Shown here: in pieces, positions 3,348 to 13,536 of the stretch
Layout of the letters: each line of letters starts with the position of its first letter
Numbering within the stretch: position 1 is the stretch's first letter
Virus record (IMG/VR): IMGVR_UViG_2671180571_000005
Coordinates: 1-13,536 of that record
Reading direction: 5' to 3' (one strand)
DNA length: 13,536 nt
Source of the DNA: a virus
Taxonomy: Duplodnaviria; Heunggongvirae; Uroviricota; Caudoviricetes
Position numbers and translations under genes: made by a program
The notes under the pieces: generated by a model
Told to the model about the DNA's origin: nothing
Seen by the model: the letters and a program-made list of their open reading frames with translations, nothing else
Databases searched by the model: none

Positions 3348-3402
3348 GGTATGCACTCCGTTTTATTGGTCGTGCTACCACCAGAGTTGCGAATCTCTTT
3401 AT

Positions 3403-3482
3403 TGGTGGTAGCCCAGGCGGGGTTCGCAATACCGGTAAACGAAGAAACCGGCCCGACCGAAGTCAGCCCCACCTGAGCCACC
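3403..3482 (-). ncRNA. Candidate C4/CI/cA-type antisense immunity RNA (tRNA-like, 3' ...ACCACCA)
   Basis: On the minus strand the 5' end GGUGGCUCAGG (3482-3472) pairs with the 3' end CCUGGGCUACC (two G-U pairs), giving an acceptor-like stem ending ACCACCA. Internal UUCG-tetraloop hairpin CUGAC-UUCG-GUCGG and CCGGU-N10-ACCGG stem. Two segments (AUUGCGAA at 3430-3423, GCUACCACCA at 3412-3403) are complementary to repeated targets upstream (3552-3565) and downstream (3374-3395) on the same strand. Ends are approximate; folded by eye. Confidence 0.4.
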
Positions 3483-3513
3483 ATAATTCGGATATGCGCA
3501 GGTCTATACACAC

Positions 3514-3536
3514 AAAAAAACACGCTGGCGCGTGTT
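3514..3536 (-). terminator. Rho-independent terminator-like hairpin in the leader of the icd-like operon
   Basis: Minus strand reads AACACGC-GCCA-GCGUGUU followed by a run of U (plus-strand A-run 3514-3520). Sits between the upstream target repeat and the candidate RNA; could be the regulated attenuator or the terminator of the lipoprotein transcript. Confidence 0.4.
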
Positions 3537-3727
3537 GTGCGCTTCGTTTTGCCAGGATTGCGAAGTCCCGACTGCGGGATTTACCGCAGCGAGGTGACTT
3601 TACCTCCAAAACGACGCACACGTCAATAATTTGCAAAGACATTTTACCCCGTGACCAGTCACGGGGACAGGTGTTTTTATAGTTTGCTTGAACAAACGAT
3701 CAGAACATGAACAATGTTATTGTTCCG

Positions 3728-4540
3728 TTATAAGAAAGCCTCACGCGAACGGAACACCCACTCTAGCTGTACTGGATAAATTTCTCCCGTTTTAATATTT
3801 ATTATGCGCGCGGCTAATAACTCACCCATAAAAACCTGAGTTTTATGGCTCATATCTGACGGGTTAAAAATAGTAGGTGATGTTATATCAATATGATTGC
3901 TGCTTAACCCATTTATCTTTGCTAAATATTCAATTCTAAGGTCTTTTACATTAACATCTTTTGGCATTTGTCCTTTTATATCAATATCTGCCCATATTGT
4001 TTCAGGGTTCCCTTCATTTATTTGTGTACTACCAAAGATAATTTCGGCACCTAAAGTATTTAACACTTCTACATCAGCAGATATTCCAAAAGCATTAGCA
4101 CCAACATAGCTTCCATGCTTTGTTATTTCAGAGGAATCGACATGAAAACCATACCATCCAGACATATCTCGAGATGTTATCACGCTATCACTACCGCTAT
4201 TCTCAGCAAAATCACGGTTAAGATATGTTCCTGAGTATGTGATACTTCTAGGGATAGACAAACCTTGAGATGTTAAAACGTTGTTGTATGGCGCGTATGT
4301 TAATGAGTGAACGACATATCCACGCCATGAACCATCATCTATCTTTGATGCAATAATTCTATTAAATTCCTTACCTGTGAGTATTTTGCTGCTAAAATCA
4401 CCAACAGAGTTGATAGGTACTCTTTTTTCTTTTTCGAATTTATACTCAACGTCCGTTGATGCCTTATTATCATATTGATAAGTGCATCCAGATAATAACA
4501 AGATAGAGAGTAATAAAGCTGTTGTTTTTTTGTTACGCAT
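3728..4540 (-). CDS. Lipoprotein of unknown function (AT-rich moron)
   Basis: 270-aa ORF. N-terminus MRNKKTTALLLSILLLSGC has a basic n-region, hydrophobic core and lipobox L-S-G-C (signal peptidase II type). Local GC about 32-35 percent against about 48-50 percent in repA (hand count of 60-bp samples). AT-rich upstream region 4541-4629. Confidence 0.7.
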   Translation of the reverse strand: MRNKKTTALLLSILLLSGCTYQYDNKASTDVEYKFEKEKRVPINSVGDFSSKILTGKEFNRIIASKIDDGSWRGYVVHSLTYAPYNNVLTSQGLSIPRSITYSGTYLNRDFAENSGSDSVITSRDMSGWYGFHVDSSEITKHGSYVGANAFGISADVEVLNTLGAEIIFGSTQINEGNPETIWADIDIKGQMPKDVNVKDLRIEYLAKINGLSSNHIDITSPTIFNPSDMSHKTQVFMGELLAARIINIKTGEIYPVQLEWVFRSREAFL

Positions 4541-4629
4541 AATATTAACTTAACCTATTTGATTAATAATATGTTATTCCATTAAATAAAATATGCCGAG
4601 AACGGTTTAACTTGAACAGTCATCACTAT

Positions 4630-5037
4630 TCAATCAACTTTTTTAGCATCAGCCATACGCTTCAACCAGTAATCAACAATCGGTTGCTCATCCACAGAAT
4701 GTTTACCAGGTATAACTCGCCAGCTATCTTGCGAAAATCTGCCGTACTTACGCGGGAATAGGCCTTTCTTTATCTCCCGCCATGTACTAGGAAAACCATC
4801 CACAAAAGTACCAATTAACAGGAGAGGGACAAAAATCAGAGCTACAAACCATCGTGCAAGAAAGTGTTCAACAACAACATTTTCACCGTTGTAGTAATAC
4901 GCATACGCATCCAATATGCGAATTTTCCTTACCTTAAAAATAGCCTTATGCTGAGAACGACTTAACTTGATACGAATGTATCCCTTATCCAAAGGGGATT
5001 CGTATTCGTATGATTGAACAGCCATTTTTAACCCCAC
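4630..5037 (-). CDS. Hypothetical membrane protein (135 aa)
   Basis: ORF with one strongly hydrophobic segment (WFVALIFVPLLLIGTFV). Start overlaps the end of the upstream 108-aa gene by 10 bp. No recognisable catalytic motif. Confidence 0.5.
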   Translation of the reverse strand: MGLKMAVQSYEYESPLDKGYIRIKLSRSQHKAIFKVRKIRILDAYAYYYNGENVVVEHFLARWFVALIFVPLLLIGTFVDGFPSTWREIKKGLFPRKYGRFSQDSWRVIPGKHSVDEQPIVDYWLKRMADAKKVD

Positions 5038-5354
5038 TCACCATCAGCAAACAAAGCGTTATACTCTGACAATGGTAGACGGTTGCCCTCGATGTAGAGA
5101 TTCAGTTCATACTTCGTCTCCGGGTTTTCCTTGTCGGCTCGTTCCCAACGCTCAGCAGCCTTACGCGCCAATAATTCCACTGCTTTCAGATAATCCTCCG
5201 TACGGAACCAGCCAAAGATAAGGCCACGATCTGTTACAGCCCAGGCGACCTTTTTTTCTTCCTCCTGGATAGCCCTAATGCGTCGTTCGCATTCATCCCG
5301 GCAGAACTGCAGCTGACGGTAATCAAGTTTGTCCAAAAATGCAGTAGTAGACAT
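5028..5354 (-). CDS. Hypothetical protein (108 aa)
   Basis: ORF with SD GGGGAG about 7 nt upstream of the ATG; tightly packed between the small membrane ORF and the 135-aa gene. Function unknown. Confidence 0.5.
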   Translation of the reverse strand: MSTTAFLDKLDYRQLQFCRDECERRIRAIQEEEKKVAWAVTDRGLIFGWFRTEDYLKAVELLARKAAERWERADKENPETKYELNLYIEGNRLPLSEYNALFADGEWG

Positions 5355-5358
5355 ATTT

Positions 5359-5550
5359 TTACTCCCCGTTCACCGAAAATTCACGATAGAAACGTTTCCA
5401 CATACGATAAGTCTGCGCAAATTGTTCACCACGAAACATCGCCTTCCTGGCCTTCATGTTTTCCTTGTGAGACTTTCGGTCTATGAACCAAAACCATTGC
5501 TGGAACACACAAAGCAAGAGACACAAAGATAATATCCACTCATTACCCAT
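5359..5550 (-). CDS. Small hypothetical membrane protein (63 aa)
   Basis: I place the start at the internal ATG (5550) just upstream of the repA stop rather than the track's 102-aa extension, which overlaps repA by about 125 bp. Product MGNEWILSLCLLLCVFQQWFWFIDRK... has one hydrophobic helix. Weak SD. Fills the gap between repA and the 108-aa gene exactly. Confidence 0.35.
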   Translation of the reverse strand: MGNEWILSLCLLLCVFQQWFWFIDRKSHKENMKARKAMFRGEQFAQTYRMWKRFYREFSVNGE

Positions 5551-8500
5551 AGAAAGCGCCCTGCTCTTCGTAGCTGCATGAGCTATTCCCCGTAATGTAT
5601 TCACGTAACCGCCGCAGCTCATTGCTGGAAAGGTGATCCATGAACTCTGTGAGGTACAGGGATGCAAACGTCATAGCTATGCTGGCTGATGACCATGATG
5701 ACATAGTGGCCAACTCCTCACTGGAAAGCGCACTCATCGCCCAGGACTCAGGTACAGCCACTGGCAACACGGCCAAAGCCTCAGAAATTACTGAATGAGG
5801 GGCGTTTTGAACCTGCTCGTTTGTGGATCGCGTTTTATCATCCATATATATATTGAGATCCAAATCGCGATCCATTTCGATGGCTGTCTTCTCGGCTTTA
5901 CGCGTTTTTAGGGTTAGGCCATCTTTCTGACGCTGAACAAGAATATCCAGCATAAATGCCGCTGATTCAGGCTCAACAAAACGCAAGGTTGGACGCTTAT
6001 CGCCGTCTCTGCCGCGACGTTTACCTGTTTTAAGGCCAAGAGAGTCGCAAATGTTTTTAAACAACGCTTCCGGCACTTTAGGCTTCCCTTTTGGCGTCAT
6101 AAAACCACCAATGTGCAGAACGTTATTCAACAGGTCACGGCGTTCGGCTGTCATGAGGTTATCTCGAGCGAATTTGAGACGCTCCTGAGTCGCCTCGCCG
6201 GTCATAGTCTCAGGGTTGATACCGCAGTCGATAAAGTACTGCCGGAGAGTTGCTGATTTAAGCGCATAGAAACCGCGCGCCCCGACTTCAACAGTAGGAG
6301 TAGCTTTTACCTTGTGATCGATTATTCCAGGGAATTTAGTTTTAAAGACATCATCAGCCTGCTCGCGAGTCATCGCGGTCACTACAAAATATTGCCACTG
6401 TCCCGCCTGACGGTATGCGTAGGTAAAATTGATGGCTGCTTCTTCCCGGTCGTAACGACGAGCTGTTACCTCATCTAAAAGCATTGTTTCATAGCGGCGA
6501 ACTTTGTCTCGAGCACCATCGAAATAGAATTTCAGCGTGCCTTCTTCAACCGGTAGTTTCAGTTCGTTCTCAATATCCCAGCGGACAAGTTTTGCTTGTT
6601 CTTCAAGCGTCAGCGCGCGTTTTTTTAGCAGTTCTTCACGCTCTGATTCTTGTGGAGTTTCTGTATTGAGATGCAGATCCAGTGTCTGTTCCCACACAAT
6701 ATCCCGCGCTTCTTTACGCAGATCTTTACCGATATCATTCGCAGCATAATCGGTGGCCAGCGGCGATACCTTATAACCGTCGCTGTGCATGATGCAGATC
6801 ATGTTGCTGGCGTAGTCGTTACGCGCAGACGCTTCAATTGCGGCTGCTTTAATTTTCATCCTGGTAAAGTCGGTATTGGCCACCCCCATTGATATACGGT
6901 CGCCATCGAAAACGACATCCGTCAGTTCACCGTTCATGCCTGCGGTAGCAAGCAATGCCTGGGCGAATGCTCGTTCTATTTTTTGCGGGTCAGTTTCACG
7001 TTTTGCGCGAGCTTTATCAAAGCCGATAATAAATTCTTTTGCTGTACGGTCGCGGCGTAGCATTTGCACTGCGTCGCTGGGTACAACTTCACCACAGAAC
7101 ATGCCGAAATGACGGTCAAAATGTTTTTGCTCAATCGACACACCGGATGAAATAGACGGGCTATAAATCAGGCCGTCGTATTTTTTGACCATCTTTTTCG
7201 GTTGATTGGTAAATGCTTCAACTTCTGGCTCTGGTTTGTTTTTCTGGTTTACACACAGAAATTTCTTACCAGGAAAATGCATTCTCAGGGTGGCGGTCAC
7301 ATCTTCTGCAAAGGTGGAGCTGTCGGTGGCCAACATGATTTTTTCGCCATTCGATACAGCTTTCACCACCTCGGTCATAATGCGATCTTTTTCTGTATAA
7401 AAAACCCGGATTGGCTCACCTGTTTCGCGGTTGCGAACATCAACAGGTAATTCAATTACGTGGATCTGCAGCCATGCCGGTAAACCTAGTTCTTCACGGC
7501 GTTTCATAGCCAGTTCAGCCAGGTCAACCAGCAGATCGTTCGCATCAGCATCCACCATTATTGGGTGTTGTTCCGTTCTGGCCAGCGCGTCAATTAACGT
7601 ATTGAATACAGCCACCGGGTTTTCCATAGCCCGACCGGAAAGAACGGCACGTAGCCCTTGCGTGGCCTCGTCAAAGCCAAAATAGTCGTGCTGGCGCATC
7701 AATGGTTGCCAGCAGTTTTTAACAATCGAGTTTATGCAGATGGTCAGTTTACTGGCGTATGGAGCCATTTCCTGATAGCCAGGGTCCTGATAGTGCAGGA
7801 TATCGGCTTTTACACCTTTTCCTTCTGTCATCATTTCCCACAGGCCACCAATAAGGGAAACACGGTGAGCAACAGAGATACCACGTTCTGAGCTATGCAT
7901 TAAAGGTCGTAACAATCCAGTAGATTTGCCGGAACCCATACCAGCACGAACGATGACTATCCCCTGTAGTGATTGCACATACTTCAGGACGTCATCGGTC
8001 ATTACCGAAGTTTCAAAACGCTTATAGGTGATATGTTGAGGACGTTTATTGGGATCAGTTATTCGTTCGCTGAATGAGCGCGGAGCCTGGGCAATACGGC
8101 ACTTTTTATTCAGGCGACGGGCAATGTGGTCTTTTACCGTAGCGCGATAGATATTTTCCAGCCCAATTTCACGCAGGACGATGCAGAACATGTTAAATAA
8201 GTCTGACGGACTGTTAGGAACCGGACAGGTTAGCATGCCAATATCCACTGCTCTCAGCAGCTCTTTGGCAAAAGTACGACGGTTATCCCGCTTAATTGTC
8301 TTCAGGCGGTTGAGCGTCAGAGATAGCAAATCAGTGCCAGTTTTCAGGCGGTTTGCAGTTGCAAACAGTTGACGTGCTGTTTCACGAAGTCCACGTAGTT
8401 TGTGCAGGTCGTTGAAGTCACTGCACTCCATTTGCGGATCGTCTTCAAAAGTTGGATAGACGCAGCGGACATCGTTGAATTTCGATAAGATTTCATAGCC

Positions 8501-9538
8501 AGTCCGCAGGCCGGTATTCCCTTTTCCTTCTGTAGCTGATTTCCGGTCATTATCCAGTGCGCAGGTGATTTTTGCCGCCGGGTACATGTTTACCAGTTGT
8601 TCCACAACATGAACCATGTTGTTAGCGGATACAGCGACAACCACAGCGTCAAAGCGTTTATCTTTTTTCGTGGCAAGCCAGATGGATGCACCAGTAGCAA
8701 AACCTTCTGTAACAGCGATGTTTTGCGCCCCTTTCAGCTCACCGATAACAAAGCAGGCACCGACGAAATCGCCGCTGGTTACGGCACTGGTCTGGTATTT
8801 TCCACCTTGTTTGTCGATTCGCTGCCAACCAACAATACGACCATCGTAACGACCGTCCAGGTGAGCCAGAGGGATAGCCATATACGTGGTTGGCCCCCTG
8901 CTCCATTTTGCGCTGTCGTGACTGGTCACGCGACGCACATCACACGAATTAAAAACGTCACGAATACCTTTTTTAATCGCATATGGCCATGAGCCGTCTT
9001 CTGCAGGAGCATGTTCCCAAGCACTGTGGAATGCCAGCCATCCCAGCAAACGTTCATGGTCCATTTGGTTGTTTTTCAGGTCATTAATTCGTTTTTGTTC
9101 TTCACGGCGACGACGTGCTTCGGCCTGACGTTCTATTCTTGCCCGTTCTTCTTCCGGTTGTGCGACCACGGTCGCATTATTCCGTTGTTGCTCACGGCGA
9201 TATTCAGAAAACAGGAAGGAGAAACCGCTCCATGAGCCAGCATCGCTGCCTTTATGGACGAAGTTAATGAACGGGTAATCAATCCCTTTGCTGTGTTCCA
9301 GCCGGGAGTAAATTTCTACGCGTCCTTTGAGGCTCTTTTCGAGAGCTTCTGGGGATGTTTTATTGTATGAAGAGTAACGCTCAACACCCCCGCGAGGGTT
9401 GAGTTGGATGTTGTCGGAACAGGCAGACCAGTTGATACCAGCCATCTGTGCCAGCTCGGTTAGTTCATCCCGTGCTGCTTCAATTAGCGAGAACGGATCG
9501 CTGCCAAAGCGATCCGCATAGAAATCGTTTAATGTCAT
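5543..9538 (-). CDS. repA: Replication protein RepA (multidomain primase-helicase, N15 RepA / P4 alpha type)
   Basis: 1331-aa ORF. Primase-like EG(F/Y)ATG motif (VTEGFATGASIW) in the N-terminal half; Walker A GMGSGKST and Walker B-like FGFDEATQ in the central helicase region. Size and position (between telN/immA and cB) match N15 repA (about 1324 aa, as I recall). Confidence 0.85.
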   Translation of the reverse strand: MTLNDFYADRFGSDPFSLIEAARDELTELAQMAGINWSACSDNIQLNPRGGVERYSSYNKTSPEALEKSLKGRVEIYSRLEHSKGIDYPFINFVHKGSDAGSWSGFSFLFSEYRREQQRNNATVVAQPEEERARIERQAEARRRREEQKRINDLKNNQMDHERLLGWLAFHSAWEHAPAEDGSWPYAIKKGIRDVFNSCDVRRVTSHDSAKWSRGPTTYMAIPLAHLDGRYDGRIVGWQRIDKQGGKYQTSAVTSGDFVGACFVIGELKGAQNIAVTEGFATGASIWLATKKDKRFDAVVVAVSANNMVHVVEQLVNMYPAAKITCALDNDRKSATEGKGNTGLRTGYEILSKFNDVRCVYPTFEDDPQMECSDFNDLHKLRGLRETARQLFATANRLKTGTDLLSLTLNRLKTIKRDNRRTFAKELLRAVDIGMLTCPVPNSPSDLFNMFCIVLREIGLENIYRATVKDHIARRLNKKCRIAQAPRSFSERITDPNKRPQHITYKRFETSVMTDDVLKYVQSLQGIVIVRAGMGSGKSTGLLRPLMHSSERGISVAHRVSLIGGLWEMMTEGKGVKADILHYQDPGYQEMAPYASKLTICINSIVKNCWQPLMRQHDYFGFDEATQGLRAVLSGRAMENPVAVFNTLIDALARTEQHPIMVDADANDLLVDLAELAMKRREELGLPAWLQIHVIELPVDVRNRETGEPIRVFYTEKDRIMTEVVKAVSNGEKIMLATDSSTFAEDVTATLRMHFPGKKFLCVNQKNKPEPEVEAFTNQPKKMVKKYDGLIYSPSISSGVSIEQKHFDRHFGMFCGEVVPSDAVQMLRRDRTAKEFIIGFDKARAKRETDPQKIERAFAQALLATAGMNGELTDVVFDGDRISMGVANTDFTRMKIKAAAIEASARNDYASNMICIMHSDGYKVSPLATDYAANDIGKDLRKEARDIVWEQTLDLHLNTETPQESEREELLKKRALTLEEQAKLVRWDIENELKLPVEEGTLKFYFDGARDKVRRYETMLLDEVTARRYDREEAAINFTYAYRQAGQWQYFVVTAMTREQADDVFKTKFPGIIDHKVKATPTVEVGARGFYALKSATLRQYFIDCGINPETMTGEATQERLKFARDNLMTAERRDLLNNVLHIGGFMTPKGKPKVPEALFKNICDSLGLKTGKRRGRDGDKRPTLRFVEPESAAFMLDILVQRQKDGLTLKTRKAEKTAIEMDRDLDLNIYMDDKTRSTNEQVQNAPHSVISEALAVLPVAVPESWAMSALSSEELATMSSWSSASIAMTFASLYLTEFMDHLSSNELRRLREYITGNSSCSYEEQGAFYG
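5800..5910. other. Candidate intragenic replication origin near the 3' end of repA
   Basis: Three copies of GCGTTTT (5802, 5830, 5902), alternating AT run CATATATATATT (about 5843-5854) and three GATC sites within 47 bp (5826, 5857, 5869), about 300 bp from the repA stop. N15 ori is reported to lie inside the 3' part of repA (from memory). Confidence 0.3.
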
Positions 9539-9589: not shown

Positions 9590-9652
9590 GGAGCAGCCAC
9601 AATAAACGCATCTTGAATTGACGGAATCCGTCGCGTTATTGTGGCTGCTTCC
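9590..9652. repeat. Long imperfect inverted repeat in the repA upstream region
   Basis: Arm 1 ggagcagccacaataaacgc (9590-9609) and arm 2 gcgttattgtggctgcttcc (9633-9652); perfect 13-bp core gcagccacaataa / ttattgtggctgc; 23-bp spacer. Confidence 0.6.
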
Positions 9653-11393: not shown

Positions 11394-11646
11394 ACAAGTT
11401 ATGTTCAGGAAACCGTCGAAGCCAGAATTAAGATATTCAGGGGTAAGAAATGAATATGTTATCTGGTGTCCAACTTGTGGTTACAGGACACGACCAGATA
11501 GTAATAAGCAGTCTGTAATTGCCGATTGGTATTTATCAAATCAGCCAGGTAATAAGCATATAGAAAATCTTTGGATTAAGCGTTACTTGGAAATCAGAGA
11601 GGGTGCGACCGTGGTCGCACAAGAAAATGAAAATAACGCCATTTAA
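11326..11646 (+). CDS. Hypothetical small protein with CxC / CxxC cysteine pairs; start uncertain
   Basis: Track ORF of 106 aa overlapping the Q-like gene end. Alternative starts: GTG 11344 (SD GGAG 7 nt upstream) or ATG 11401 (no SD). Contains FCLC and CPTCG, a possible small zinc-binding motif. Confidence 0.4.
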   Translation: MRRRSAVKSSNAIGQEVPFCLCKQVMFRKPSKPELRYSGVRNEYVIWCPTCGYRTRPDSNKQSVIADWYLSNQPGNKHIENLWIKRYLEIREGATVVAQENENNAI

Positions 11647-13162: not shown

Positions 13163-13536
13163 AATTTTACAAATTTTCTGAGTTGGTGAATCGCATTTTG
13201 TCCAACAACCACAGCCATCGTCGCGATATGGATGTAACAATCGTTGTTCATTCGCCTGGCAGCATTGGTTCAACACCTTCAGTTGAGGTTCAGTCAATTC
13301 ACGCTGGTTTTGATTGGGATTCCGGGAAAGTGCTTATTTTCCCATCACAGCCACTGACCACGCTAACACCAGAACAGATTACTGATATCACTGATAGTGT
13401 GCGCAAAGGTCAGTCTTGGCACGCATATCAGGAATATAAAAATCATAAAGAGCAGTTGGAAAAATTGTCGATTGAGTTGGAATCAGCCAAAAATCACATA
13501 GCAGAACTGGAAGCCAAACCTGTAAGCCAAACTTAC
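13159..13536 (+). CDS. Hypothetical protein, 3'-truncated by the window end
   Basis: ATG at 13159 overlaps the previous stop (ATGA); open to the last base of the window (126 codons, no stop). Not in the track because incomplete. The last part looks coiled-coil-like (EQLEKLSIELESAKNHIAELEAK). Confidence 0.5.
   Translation, partial: MKFYKFSELVNRILSNNHSHRRDMDVTIVVHSPGSIGSTPSVEVQSIHAGFDWDSGKVLIFPSQPLTTLTPEQITDITDSVRKGQSWHAYQEYKNHKEQLEKLSIELESAKNHIAELEAKPVSQTY

Follow-up and report, generated by a model that had tools for sequence, protein, structure and literature searches.

The replication origin of the linear phage-plasmid N15 reportedly lies within repA, and that of PY54 is said to be a 212-bp segment in the 3' portion of its repA. 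In view of the GenBank repeat annotation, both mapped origins probably include a segment homologous to the core described below, with counterparts expected inside the published origins at 30141-30193 of AF064539 (N15) and 27863-27909 of AJ564013 (PY54). Secondary sources also place the N15 origin within repA (PMC4165912; PMC2847241), in agreement with the original prediction, which placed it in the 3' part of that gene. Origins of this kind are therefore already described for N15 and PY54, and the sequence analysed here adds another instance.

The window, that is the whole stretch of 13,536 nucleotides analysed, is an N15-like telomere phage-plasmid showing 98% identity to Escherichia phage PhiR46_1. 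The record of this nearly identical phage displays the order telL-telN-...-repA-cI-cro and contains telL, telR and a ParAB system. Among 5426 complete E. coli genomes, 17 contain this element, located on plasmids only. Similar to N15 and PY54, the element is a protelomerase-bearing linear phage-plasmid with its candidate site in the 3' part of repA.

RepA and the motifs near the end of its gene

The repA gene occupies 5543-9538 on the minus strand and, according to the ORF list and its translation, encodes a multidomain replication protein of 1331 aa. Residues 525-1034 match the NCBIfam model CyRepA1 (NF042913) with 259.6 bits against a curated cut-off of 200, a score that assigns RepA to the CyRepA1-family plasmid replication proteins, and Pfam revealed Toprim_3 at residues 274-383 and Herpes_ori_bp at 522-674. 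Along the protein, a Toprim primase region precedes a region of helicase/origin-binding type, and the candidate origin falls in the part encoding a C-terminal extension. Over the 3' 1-kb query (5543-6600), identity to the 'primase' gene of PhiR46_1 is 98.5%, and the C-terminal region of the protein shares only about 59% identity with N15. Downstream of repA, three small genes are found on the minus strand at 5359-5667, 5028-5354 and 4630-5037.

Three GCGTTTT repeats, an alternating AT run and three GATC sites, all within RepA-coding sequence, had been listed in the original prediction. All of them are present, and the minus-strand translation bore out their coding role: across the motif region, the repA frame encodes ...MDRDLDLNIYMDDK... 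and reads ...KTAIEMDRDLDLNIYMDDKTRSTNEQ... The GCGTTTT copies at 5802-5808, 5830-5836 and 5902-5908 are three of only five plus-strand copies in 13.5 kb, and none of 1000 dinucleotide shuffles brought three of them within 107 bp. The (AT)5 run ATATATATAT at 5844-5853 is the sole such run in the window; alternating AT runs of at least 10 nt appeared in 17 of 1000 dinucleotide shuffles. The GATC sites at 5826-5829, 5857-5860 and 5869-5872, 3 of the 30 in the window, form a cluster that is not unusual by itself, as three within 47 bp anywhere in the window have a P of about 0.12 given 30 sites (about 0.002 if a 111-bp region is specified in advance). This cluster is meaningful only because of its conservation in 16 clades.

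Statistically odd as it is, the GCGTTTT triplet is conserved nowhere beyond the lineage of the window and PhiR46_1. Both outer copies are lineage-specific: that at 5802-5808 is not kept in the Klebsiella, N15 or PY54 clades, and that at 5902-5908, a product of the codons K-T-R, is not kept in other clades. K-T-R codons give rise to two of the GCGTTTT copies. The middle copy alone is part of a conserved feature, being located in the left arm of an inverted repeat, and the outer copies are probably irrelevant and outside the functional core. GCGTTTT was ruled out as an iteron, since its copies are kept only in the closest relatives. The predicted location, an origin in the 3' part of repA under coding constraint, is supported by the N15 homology, the synonymous peak and the secondary sources, whereas the GCGTTTT repeats had to be given up as its key elements in favor of an inverted repeat at 5818-5880 with GATC at its tips and an AT-rich spacer between its arms.

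Architecture of the core compared with N15 and PY54

The core at 5818-5880, to which no strand is assigned, was delimited by the sole peak of between-clade synonymous codon identity and by a nucleotide alignment of 16 clades. It encodes RepA residues about 1220-1241, and its centre precedes the end of repA by 307 nt. In the inverted repeat, the left arm, TGGATCGCGTTTT at 5824-5836, contains the GATC at 5826-5829 and the middle GCGTTTT, and the right arm, AAATCGCGATCCA at 5862-5874, contains the GATC at 5869-5872. The two arms are complementary at 12 of 13 positions, a match equalled in none of 200 shuffles. They enclose a 25-bp spacer (5837-5861) of 72% A+T that includes the (AT)5 run and is proposed as the DNA unwinding element. 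Duplex stability is low here, the least stable 20-mer (5833-5852) and the least stable 30-mer (5835-5864) of the whole repA both being found at this place (each rank 1 of about 3970). The single strand folds with -11.5 kcal/mol (z -2.6), matched by none of 200 shuffles. In addition, the plus strand has two direct repeats of the GATCCA type spaced by 12 bp, namely GATCCAAATCG (5857-5867) and GATCCATTTCG (5869-5879), which are candidate RepA half-sites, and an inverted copy at 5818-5829 reads GATCCACAAACG on the minus strand. The pattern GATCCANNNCG occurs at this place only within the window.

Alignment by blastn revealed that 5738-6589 of the window is homologous to 1341-2191 of N15 (U63085), with the core aligned to 1425-1477. 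The depositors of U63085 annotated three repeats in N15, at 1421-1431 (complement), 1460-1470 and 1472-1482, whose counterpart in the window is 5818-5879. The inverted copy at 5818-5829 is homologous to the first of them, and the direct repeats at 5857-5867 and 5869-5879 are homologous to the second (GATCCAAATCG) and the third (GATCCACTTCG). In both phages the element is found in the telL-proximal, 3' part of repA, where an AT-rich run is flanked by two direct repeats and an inverted one; the two elements share an identical GATCCAAATCGCGATCCA and the left TGGATCG. However, the spacer is ATCATCCATATATATATTGA in the window and GAGGGTTACCATGTATATCTATATTTA in N15. The window has the longer inverted repeat (12/13 compared with 8/8-10/13), and N15 lacks the outer GCGTTTT copies. 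The PY54 element has the same position, about 85-100 codons from the stop, and GATC-tipped inverted arms around TATATCTATAT. Its arm sequence, GATCCAACTTG / CAAGTTAGATC, differs from the window arms, it has four GATC instead of three, and its motifs lie in a different codon phase, encoding unrelated amino acids.

We propose that the plasmid-prophage replication origin has its core at 5818-5880 and is RepA-dependent and homologous to the intragenic origins of N15 and PY54, a reading of the sequence to which we give a probability of about 0.85. This origin very probably sits within the gene of its own initiator, in a poorly conserved stretch of the RepA C-terminal extension. The palindrome could also be a regulatory or copy-control site instead of a start site, serving RepA autoregulation or handcuffing, as an incompatibility determinant, or in SeqA/Dam sensing; conserved GATC arranged as a protein-binding palindrome would suit such a role, and binding and initiation are inseparable from sequence alone. 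We consider this unlikely, since binding-site symmetry with the least stable DNA of repA between the arms is the classic layout of an origin, the homologous 3' region of repA has been reported as the origin in N15 and PY54, and repA has no second candidate of this kind.

Conservation of the core among RepA clades

Nucleotide conservation beyond synonymous expectation, the check suggested with the original prediction, was clearly positive, with a single peak at 5840-5878. Among 16 clade representatives, synonymous codon identity in this segment reaches 0.83, compared with 0.42 on average (sd 0.086, z 4.8), the only peak in the last 460 codons of repA, whereas amino-acid identity is only 0.35. 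In a set of 10 sequences from 4 clades, the top 15 stretches of 12 codons all cover 5807-5881, with values of 0.76-0.85 compared with 0.43 globally. A GTDB scan added only 5 loci, two of which (L021, L022) were too distant for alignment. A Rouxiella plasmid has a second, near-identical copy of the 55-bp palindrome immediately past the end of the ORF, in non-coding sequence, indicating that the element is kept as DNA independently of coding. The synonymous peak and this non-coding duplicate together reveal purifying selection at the DNA level beyond coding needs. Synonymous constraint indicates that a DNA or RNA element exists; it does not specify the role of the element.

The GATC cluster and the AT centre are kept in 16 of 16 clades. 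Each core segment (105-147 nt) contains 3-4 GATC. Together, the core segments have 60 such sites in 1938 nt, whereas the flanking repA sequence has 55 in 20142 nt, an enrichment of about 11-fold. The clades also share the ATATnTATAT centre, which includes an invariant rare ATA Ile codon. In most clades, arms of 10-15 nt flank a spacer of 21-27 bp with 64-76% A+T; by simple score the inverted repeat is only weak in 5 of the 16. The inner arm sequence varies between clades while complementarity persists in most of them, and the variable arm positions show 78 Watson-Crick matches out of 112, compared with 53.4 +/- 4.8 after exchange of arms among clades; none of 2000 such permutations reached the observed number. 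Short motifs might also have come together by chance within the coding sequence, since three GATC in 47 bp are not rare alone. This explanation is already effectively refuted by the clade conservation of the core (z 4.8) and the covariation of the arms; the GCGTTTT clustering, equalled in none of 1000 shuffles, also speaks against it.

Constraint on translation would be another source of the peak, with a cluster of rare codons (ATA, CGA) pausing ribosomes and thereby allowing nascent RepA to load in cis. The invariant ATA codon agrees with this explanation, as does the report that N15 RepA acts only in cis (PMC3155836). However, the PY54-type clades keep GATC and palindrome in a different reading phase (GGA TCT, compared with GAT CTC in the window) and Rouxiella keeps a copy outside any ORF. 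A codon-level effect can explain neither the phase shift nor the non-ORF copy, making this alternative highly improbable.

Alternatively, the constraint might reflect an internal promoter/operator, or an antisense or structured RNA, serving the small genes downstream of repA. AT-rich TATAT-type sequence with GATC could make a Dam-sensitive promoter, and the folding z-score of -2.6 would be in line with a structured RNA. The search for sigma-70-like promoters on both strands of 5300-6300 found none, compared with 1.3 expected by chance, and no Rfam family was found at the site, the C4 and isrK matches being elsewhere. In addition, the palindrome is conserved while the downstream genes vary between clades, and the extra copy of Rouxiella follows the ORF with no conserved gene behind it. 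A promoter or RNA is therefore very unlikely to account for the constraint. A terminator scan of 5300-6300 yielded two weak hairpins at 5947-5965, at chance level.

Proposed initiation and other origin types

For the proposed intragenic origin, we infer a scheme of RepA binding, melting, initiation point and methylation control as follows. RepA, with its primase, helicase and origin-binding functions, would bind the GATCC-containing half-sites, namely the 13-bp inverted repeat and the second direct copy on the right side. It would then open the 25-bp AT-rich spacer between the half-sites, load itself as helicase and prime synthesis. Replication would then proceed bidirectionally until the forks reach the hairpin telomeres, to be resolved by the protelomerase. 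As the most speculative step, Dam methylation and SeqA would probably influence binding or re-initiation through the 3-4 GATC conserved at the arm tips. Extending the scheme, the GATC-tipped palindrome might be a universal methylation-gated origin design of the whole CyRepA1/N15-type RepA family, in which Dam (host or phage-encoded) and SeqA sequestration of 3-4 phased GATC would set timing or copy number and the position of the origin in a low-constraint part of the C-terminal repA extension would couple firing to synthesis of a cis-acting initiator; this generalization is tentative and we hold it as rather doubtful.

The known picture of how these replicons work is unchanged by the proposed origin. 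For one clade of N15-like phage-plasmids from E. coli, it provides a base-precise candidate (5818-5880), and the intragenic design reported for N15, PY54 and phiKO2 extends, with GATC and covarying arms, to at least 16 RepA clades. The candidate may be used for annotating such elements, for linear N15-type vectors with new compatibility and for planning tests of Dam/SeqA control.

Other known types of origin and site were also compared. A DnaA-dependent origin of the oriC type was rejected, as TTATCCACA is matched with at most 1 mismatch only at 4688 and 4985, a chance level, and nowhere near the site. An iteron-type origin as in F oriS, P1 oriR or pSC101, with at least three direct repeats of 17-22 bp, does not fit the only two 11-nt direct copies and one inverted copy. 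A SopB/ParB centromere (sopC-like, TGGGACC-NN-GGTCCCA-type) was also discarded, the palindromes TGCGACCNNGGTCGCA being found at 9161-9176 and 11604-11619 and none at 5800-5910.

In herpes simplex virus oriS, inverted initiator boxes for the origin-binding helicase UL9 flank a short A+T spacer, the site of unwinding. The same layout is proposed here, with an initiator that is itself a helicase and that matches Herpes_ori_bp. However, the sites are unrelated in sequence, RepA also has a primase, and the window candidate is intragenic and GATC-rich. E. coli oriC and P1 oriR are Dam-controlled origins in which a dense GATC cluster adjoins an unwinding element, as proposed for the window, whereas the window site lacks DnaA boxes as well as arrays of 13-mer or 7-mer repeats and of iterons. 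The GATC sites of the core are spaced by 12, 31 and 43 bp, and SeqA binding to GATC pairs has been tested over spacings of 5-34 bp (PMC2691817). A literature search found nothing on Dam or GATC at the N15 origin. In repABC plasmids, oriV is located within repC (PMC3155836), similarly placing an origin inside the coding sequence of its own initiator and close to A+T-rich sequence; for both, action in cis has been discussed. Unlike the window, these plasmids have an unrelated initiator family, alphaproteobacterial hosts and no GATC palindrome.

Cumulative GC and AT skews were calculated for the window and the whole PhiR46_1 genome, and the GC skew shows no turn at the core. The skew tracks transcription direction and gene orientation and is therefore uninformative for origin location; its minimum falls at the cI/cro divergence, at 9269 in PhiR46_1 and 10402 in the window. 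A 627-aa ORF at 128-2011 of the window occupies the position equal to that of telN in N15.

A probable origin core in the 3' part of repA

The window is the telL-proximal portion of an N15-like linear phage-plasmid. Escherichia phage PhiR46_1 (PV340565), with the gene order telL, a 633-aa ORF, small genes, a 1331-aa 'primase', cI, cro ... ParAB and telR, shares 98% identity with positions 5400-6400, and in blastn YDC107_1, a large Klebsiella group, phiKO2 and N15 matched less closely, at 66-84% nucleotide identity. Among 5426 complete E. coli genomes, 17 carry the segment, in every case on a plasmid and with no chromosomal copy. The large ORF repA occupies 5543-9538 on the minus strand. Residues 525-1034 of RepA match NCBIfam CyRepA1 with 259.6 bits (cut-off 200), and Pfam matches were found to Herpes_ori_bp at 522-674 and, more weakly, to Toprim_3 at 274-383.

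Positions 5818-5880 very probably form the origin core, a reading to which we assign a probability of about 0.85. The original prediction of an origin inside the 3' part of repA, as in N15, is supported by homology to N15 and by a peak of synonymous-codon conservation at the core. Its interval of 5800-5910 contains the core but is too wide, and a GATC-tipped palindrome rather than GCGTTTT defines the element. Positions 5738-6589 align by blastn to 1341-2191 of the N15 record U63085, in which the depositors annotated repeat_regions at 1421-1431 (complement), 1460-1470 and 1472-1482. These repeats, GATCCAAATCG, GATCCACTTCG and the inverted ATCCAAAACAG, have an AT-rich run in their midst; their equivalents here are GATCCAAATCG at 5857-5867, GATCCATTTCG at 5869-5879 and, read on the minus strand, GATCCACAAACG at 5818-5829. 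The core corresponds to 30141-30193 of AF064539 (N15) and 27863-27909 of AJ564013 (PY54), and in all three phages its centre lies 256-307 nt upstream of the repA end. Ziegelin et al. in 2005 reportedly localized the PY54 origin to 212 bp within the 3' portion of repA, a region in which the origins proposed for PY54, N15 and KO2 are said to have conserved structural elements in common. Judged from its sequence, the element belongs to the already known N15/PY54-type intragenic origins.

Conservation of the DNA and the palindrome

The last 460 codons of repA were aligned by codon and scored in 12-codon windows for the between-clade share of the same codon where amino acids are identical. With 10 sequences from 4 clades the share was 43% overall versus 76-85% in the 15 best windows, all of which cover 5807-5881. 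Addition of IMG/VR and GTDB loci gave 65 distinct 3' ends in 16 clades at 88% amino-acid identity, and conservation beyond the synonymous expectation, the proposed mark of an origin constrained by coding sequence, appeared as a lone peak at 5840-5878, where the share rises to 0.83 from a profile mean of 0.42 (sd 0.086, z 4.8). The protein is poorly conserved at this point (amino-acid identity 0.35), and its alignment has indels just downstream, indicating that the origin would lie where the protein is under little constraint and that the DNA itself is conserved. Across the aligned clades the central Ile codon is always ATA, the one that E. coli uses least often for this residue.

In each of the 16 clade representatives, the core segment (105-147 nt) holds three to four GATC sites around an ATATnTATAT centre, with 60 GATC in 1938 nt versus 55 in 20142 nt of adjacent repA sequence, an enrichment of about 11-fold. 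The sites are read as GAT CGC and GAT CTC in the window and as GGA TCT and AGA TCT in PY54-type clades; the different codon phase and encoded residues rule out an amino-acid explanation of their conservation. The left arm TGGATCGCGTTTT (5824-5836) and the right arm AAATCGCGATCCA (5862-5874) are complementary at 12 of 13 positions and flank a 25-bp spacer of 72% A+T. Arms in most clades are 10-15 nt long, begin with (T)GATCC and enclose spacers of 21-27 bp, and their inner sequences vary by clade (CGCGTTT, AACTTG, AGCTTTT, AGATCTTT) with complementarity retained. Watson-Crick pairs were formed at 78 of 112 variable arm positions, versus 53.4 ± 4.8 when arms were swapped between clades (78 reached in 0/2000 permutations). 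For the top strand of 5815-5883, the predicted fold is the expected hairpin, with -11.5 kcal/mol (z -2.6), a stability that none of 200 shuffles matched.

The palindrome occurs twice on the Rouxiella badensis plasmid pSP2 (CP114059). The first copy (2368-2420) lies inside a free-standing 381-aa ORF (1522-2664) close to a protelomerase gene, with homology to RepA confined to RepA's C-terminal part; the second (2689-2741), 321 bp downstream and near-identical over 55 bp, lies in non-coding DNA. This non-coding duplicate, the breadth of conservation and the arm covariation are what the analysis adds.

The least stable 20-mer and 30-mer of the 4-kb repA are 5833-5852 and 5835-5864. From sequence alone, the element would also be compatible with a regulatory site bound without initiation, but symmetric sites around the weakest duplex of the gene are the standard layout of an origin, and a purely regulatory role appears quite improbable. 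No sigma-70-like promoter was found on either strand in 5300-6300, no Rfam family matched the core region and no DnaA box lies near the core. GC skew tracks gene orientation and was uninformative as an origin locator.

All motifs of the original prediction were recovered: GCGTTTT at 5802, 5830 and 5902, GATC at 5826, 5857 and 5869, and the alternating AT run ATATATATAT at 5844-5853, in a frame encoding ...AIEMDRDLDLNIYMDDKTRST... of RepA. Dinucleotide shuffles equalled the GCGTTTT triplet in 0/1000 cases and the AT run in 17/1000. The GATC triplet by itself is unremarkable within the window (P about 0.12 anywhere; about 0.002 for the prespecified 111-bp region). The GCGTTTT repeats were rejected as the defining element, as only the middle copy lies inside the conserved element, in the left arm, and the aligned YDC107, Klebsiella, N15 and PY54 clades lack those at 5802 and 5902; these two are lineage-specific and probably irrelevant. 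Two of the three copies arise from K-T-R codons. Other 7-mer clusters are AGCCAAA (three in 47 bp, 13485-13531) and, inside repA, TTCTTCA (three in 97 bp, 6542-6638).

Proposed initiation and methylation control

In the proposed mechanism, RepA would bind the GATCC half-sites on either side of the spacer, melt the 25 bp between them, and then load as helicase and prime, with replication proceeding bidirectionally to the telomeres. A similar arrangement is found in herpesvirus oriS/UL9, where inverted boxes flank an A+T spacer and the initiator is itself a helicase, in agreement with the Herpes_ori_bp match in RepA. N15 RepA is cited in PMC3155836 as acting only in cis. GATC spacings in the core are 12, 31 and 43 bp, the first two within the 5-34 bp at which PMC2691817 describes tests of SeqA binding to GATC pairs. 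Since PhiR46_1 also encodes a DNA adenine methylase (14970-16091, outside the window's extent), methylation control of the origin is plausible.

Probable centromere sites and other features

The core was rejected as a centromere. Perfect sopC-like palindromes lie at 9161-9176 (TGCGACCACGGTCGCA, inside the 5' part of repA) and 11604-11619 (TGCGACCGTGGTCGCA); two such matches occurred in 1/200 shuffles, and both are likely ParB/SopB centromere sites distinct from the origin. PMC2847241 speaks of a 'centromere within repA' in N15 vectors, which is therefore a site distinct from the core.

On the minus strand, Rfam matches to C4 antisense RNA (3401-3488; 82 bits, gathering score 45) and isrK (3515-3590; 52.8 bits, gathering score 50) probably mark an N15/P1-type secondary-immunity locus of antirepressor-control RNAs. 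Just upstream of repA, the perfect 14-nt inverted repeat AGCAGCCACAATAA / TTATTGTGGCTGCT (9592-9605 / 9636-9649) may be the counterpart of the OL operators of the N15 prophage repressor. Between the 627-aa ORF and repA, gene content departs from that of PhiR46_1, pointing to a mosaic accessory region. In the left arm, several segments, such as 496-595 and 4493-4592 (within 128-2011 and 3728-4593), are far AT-richer and less stable than repA.

Some IMG/VR contigs carry two inverted repA copies (locus pairs L030/L031, L043/L068, L048/L052, L053/L055, L059/L087 and L082/L088), one of them being 92,470 nt long, about twice 46 kb, and several plasmid records likewise hold two places. These records look like head-to-head dimers or assemblies reading through a hairpin telomere.
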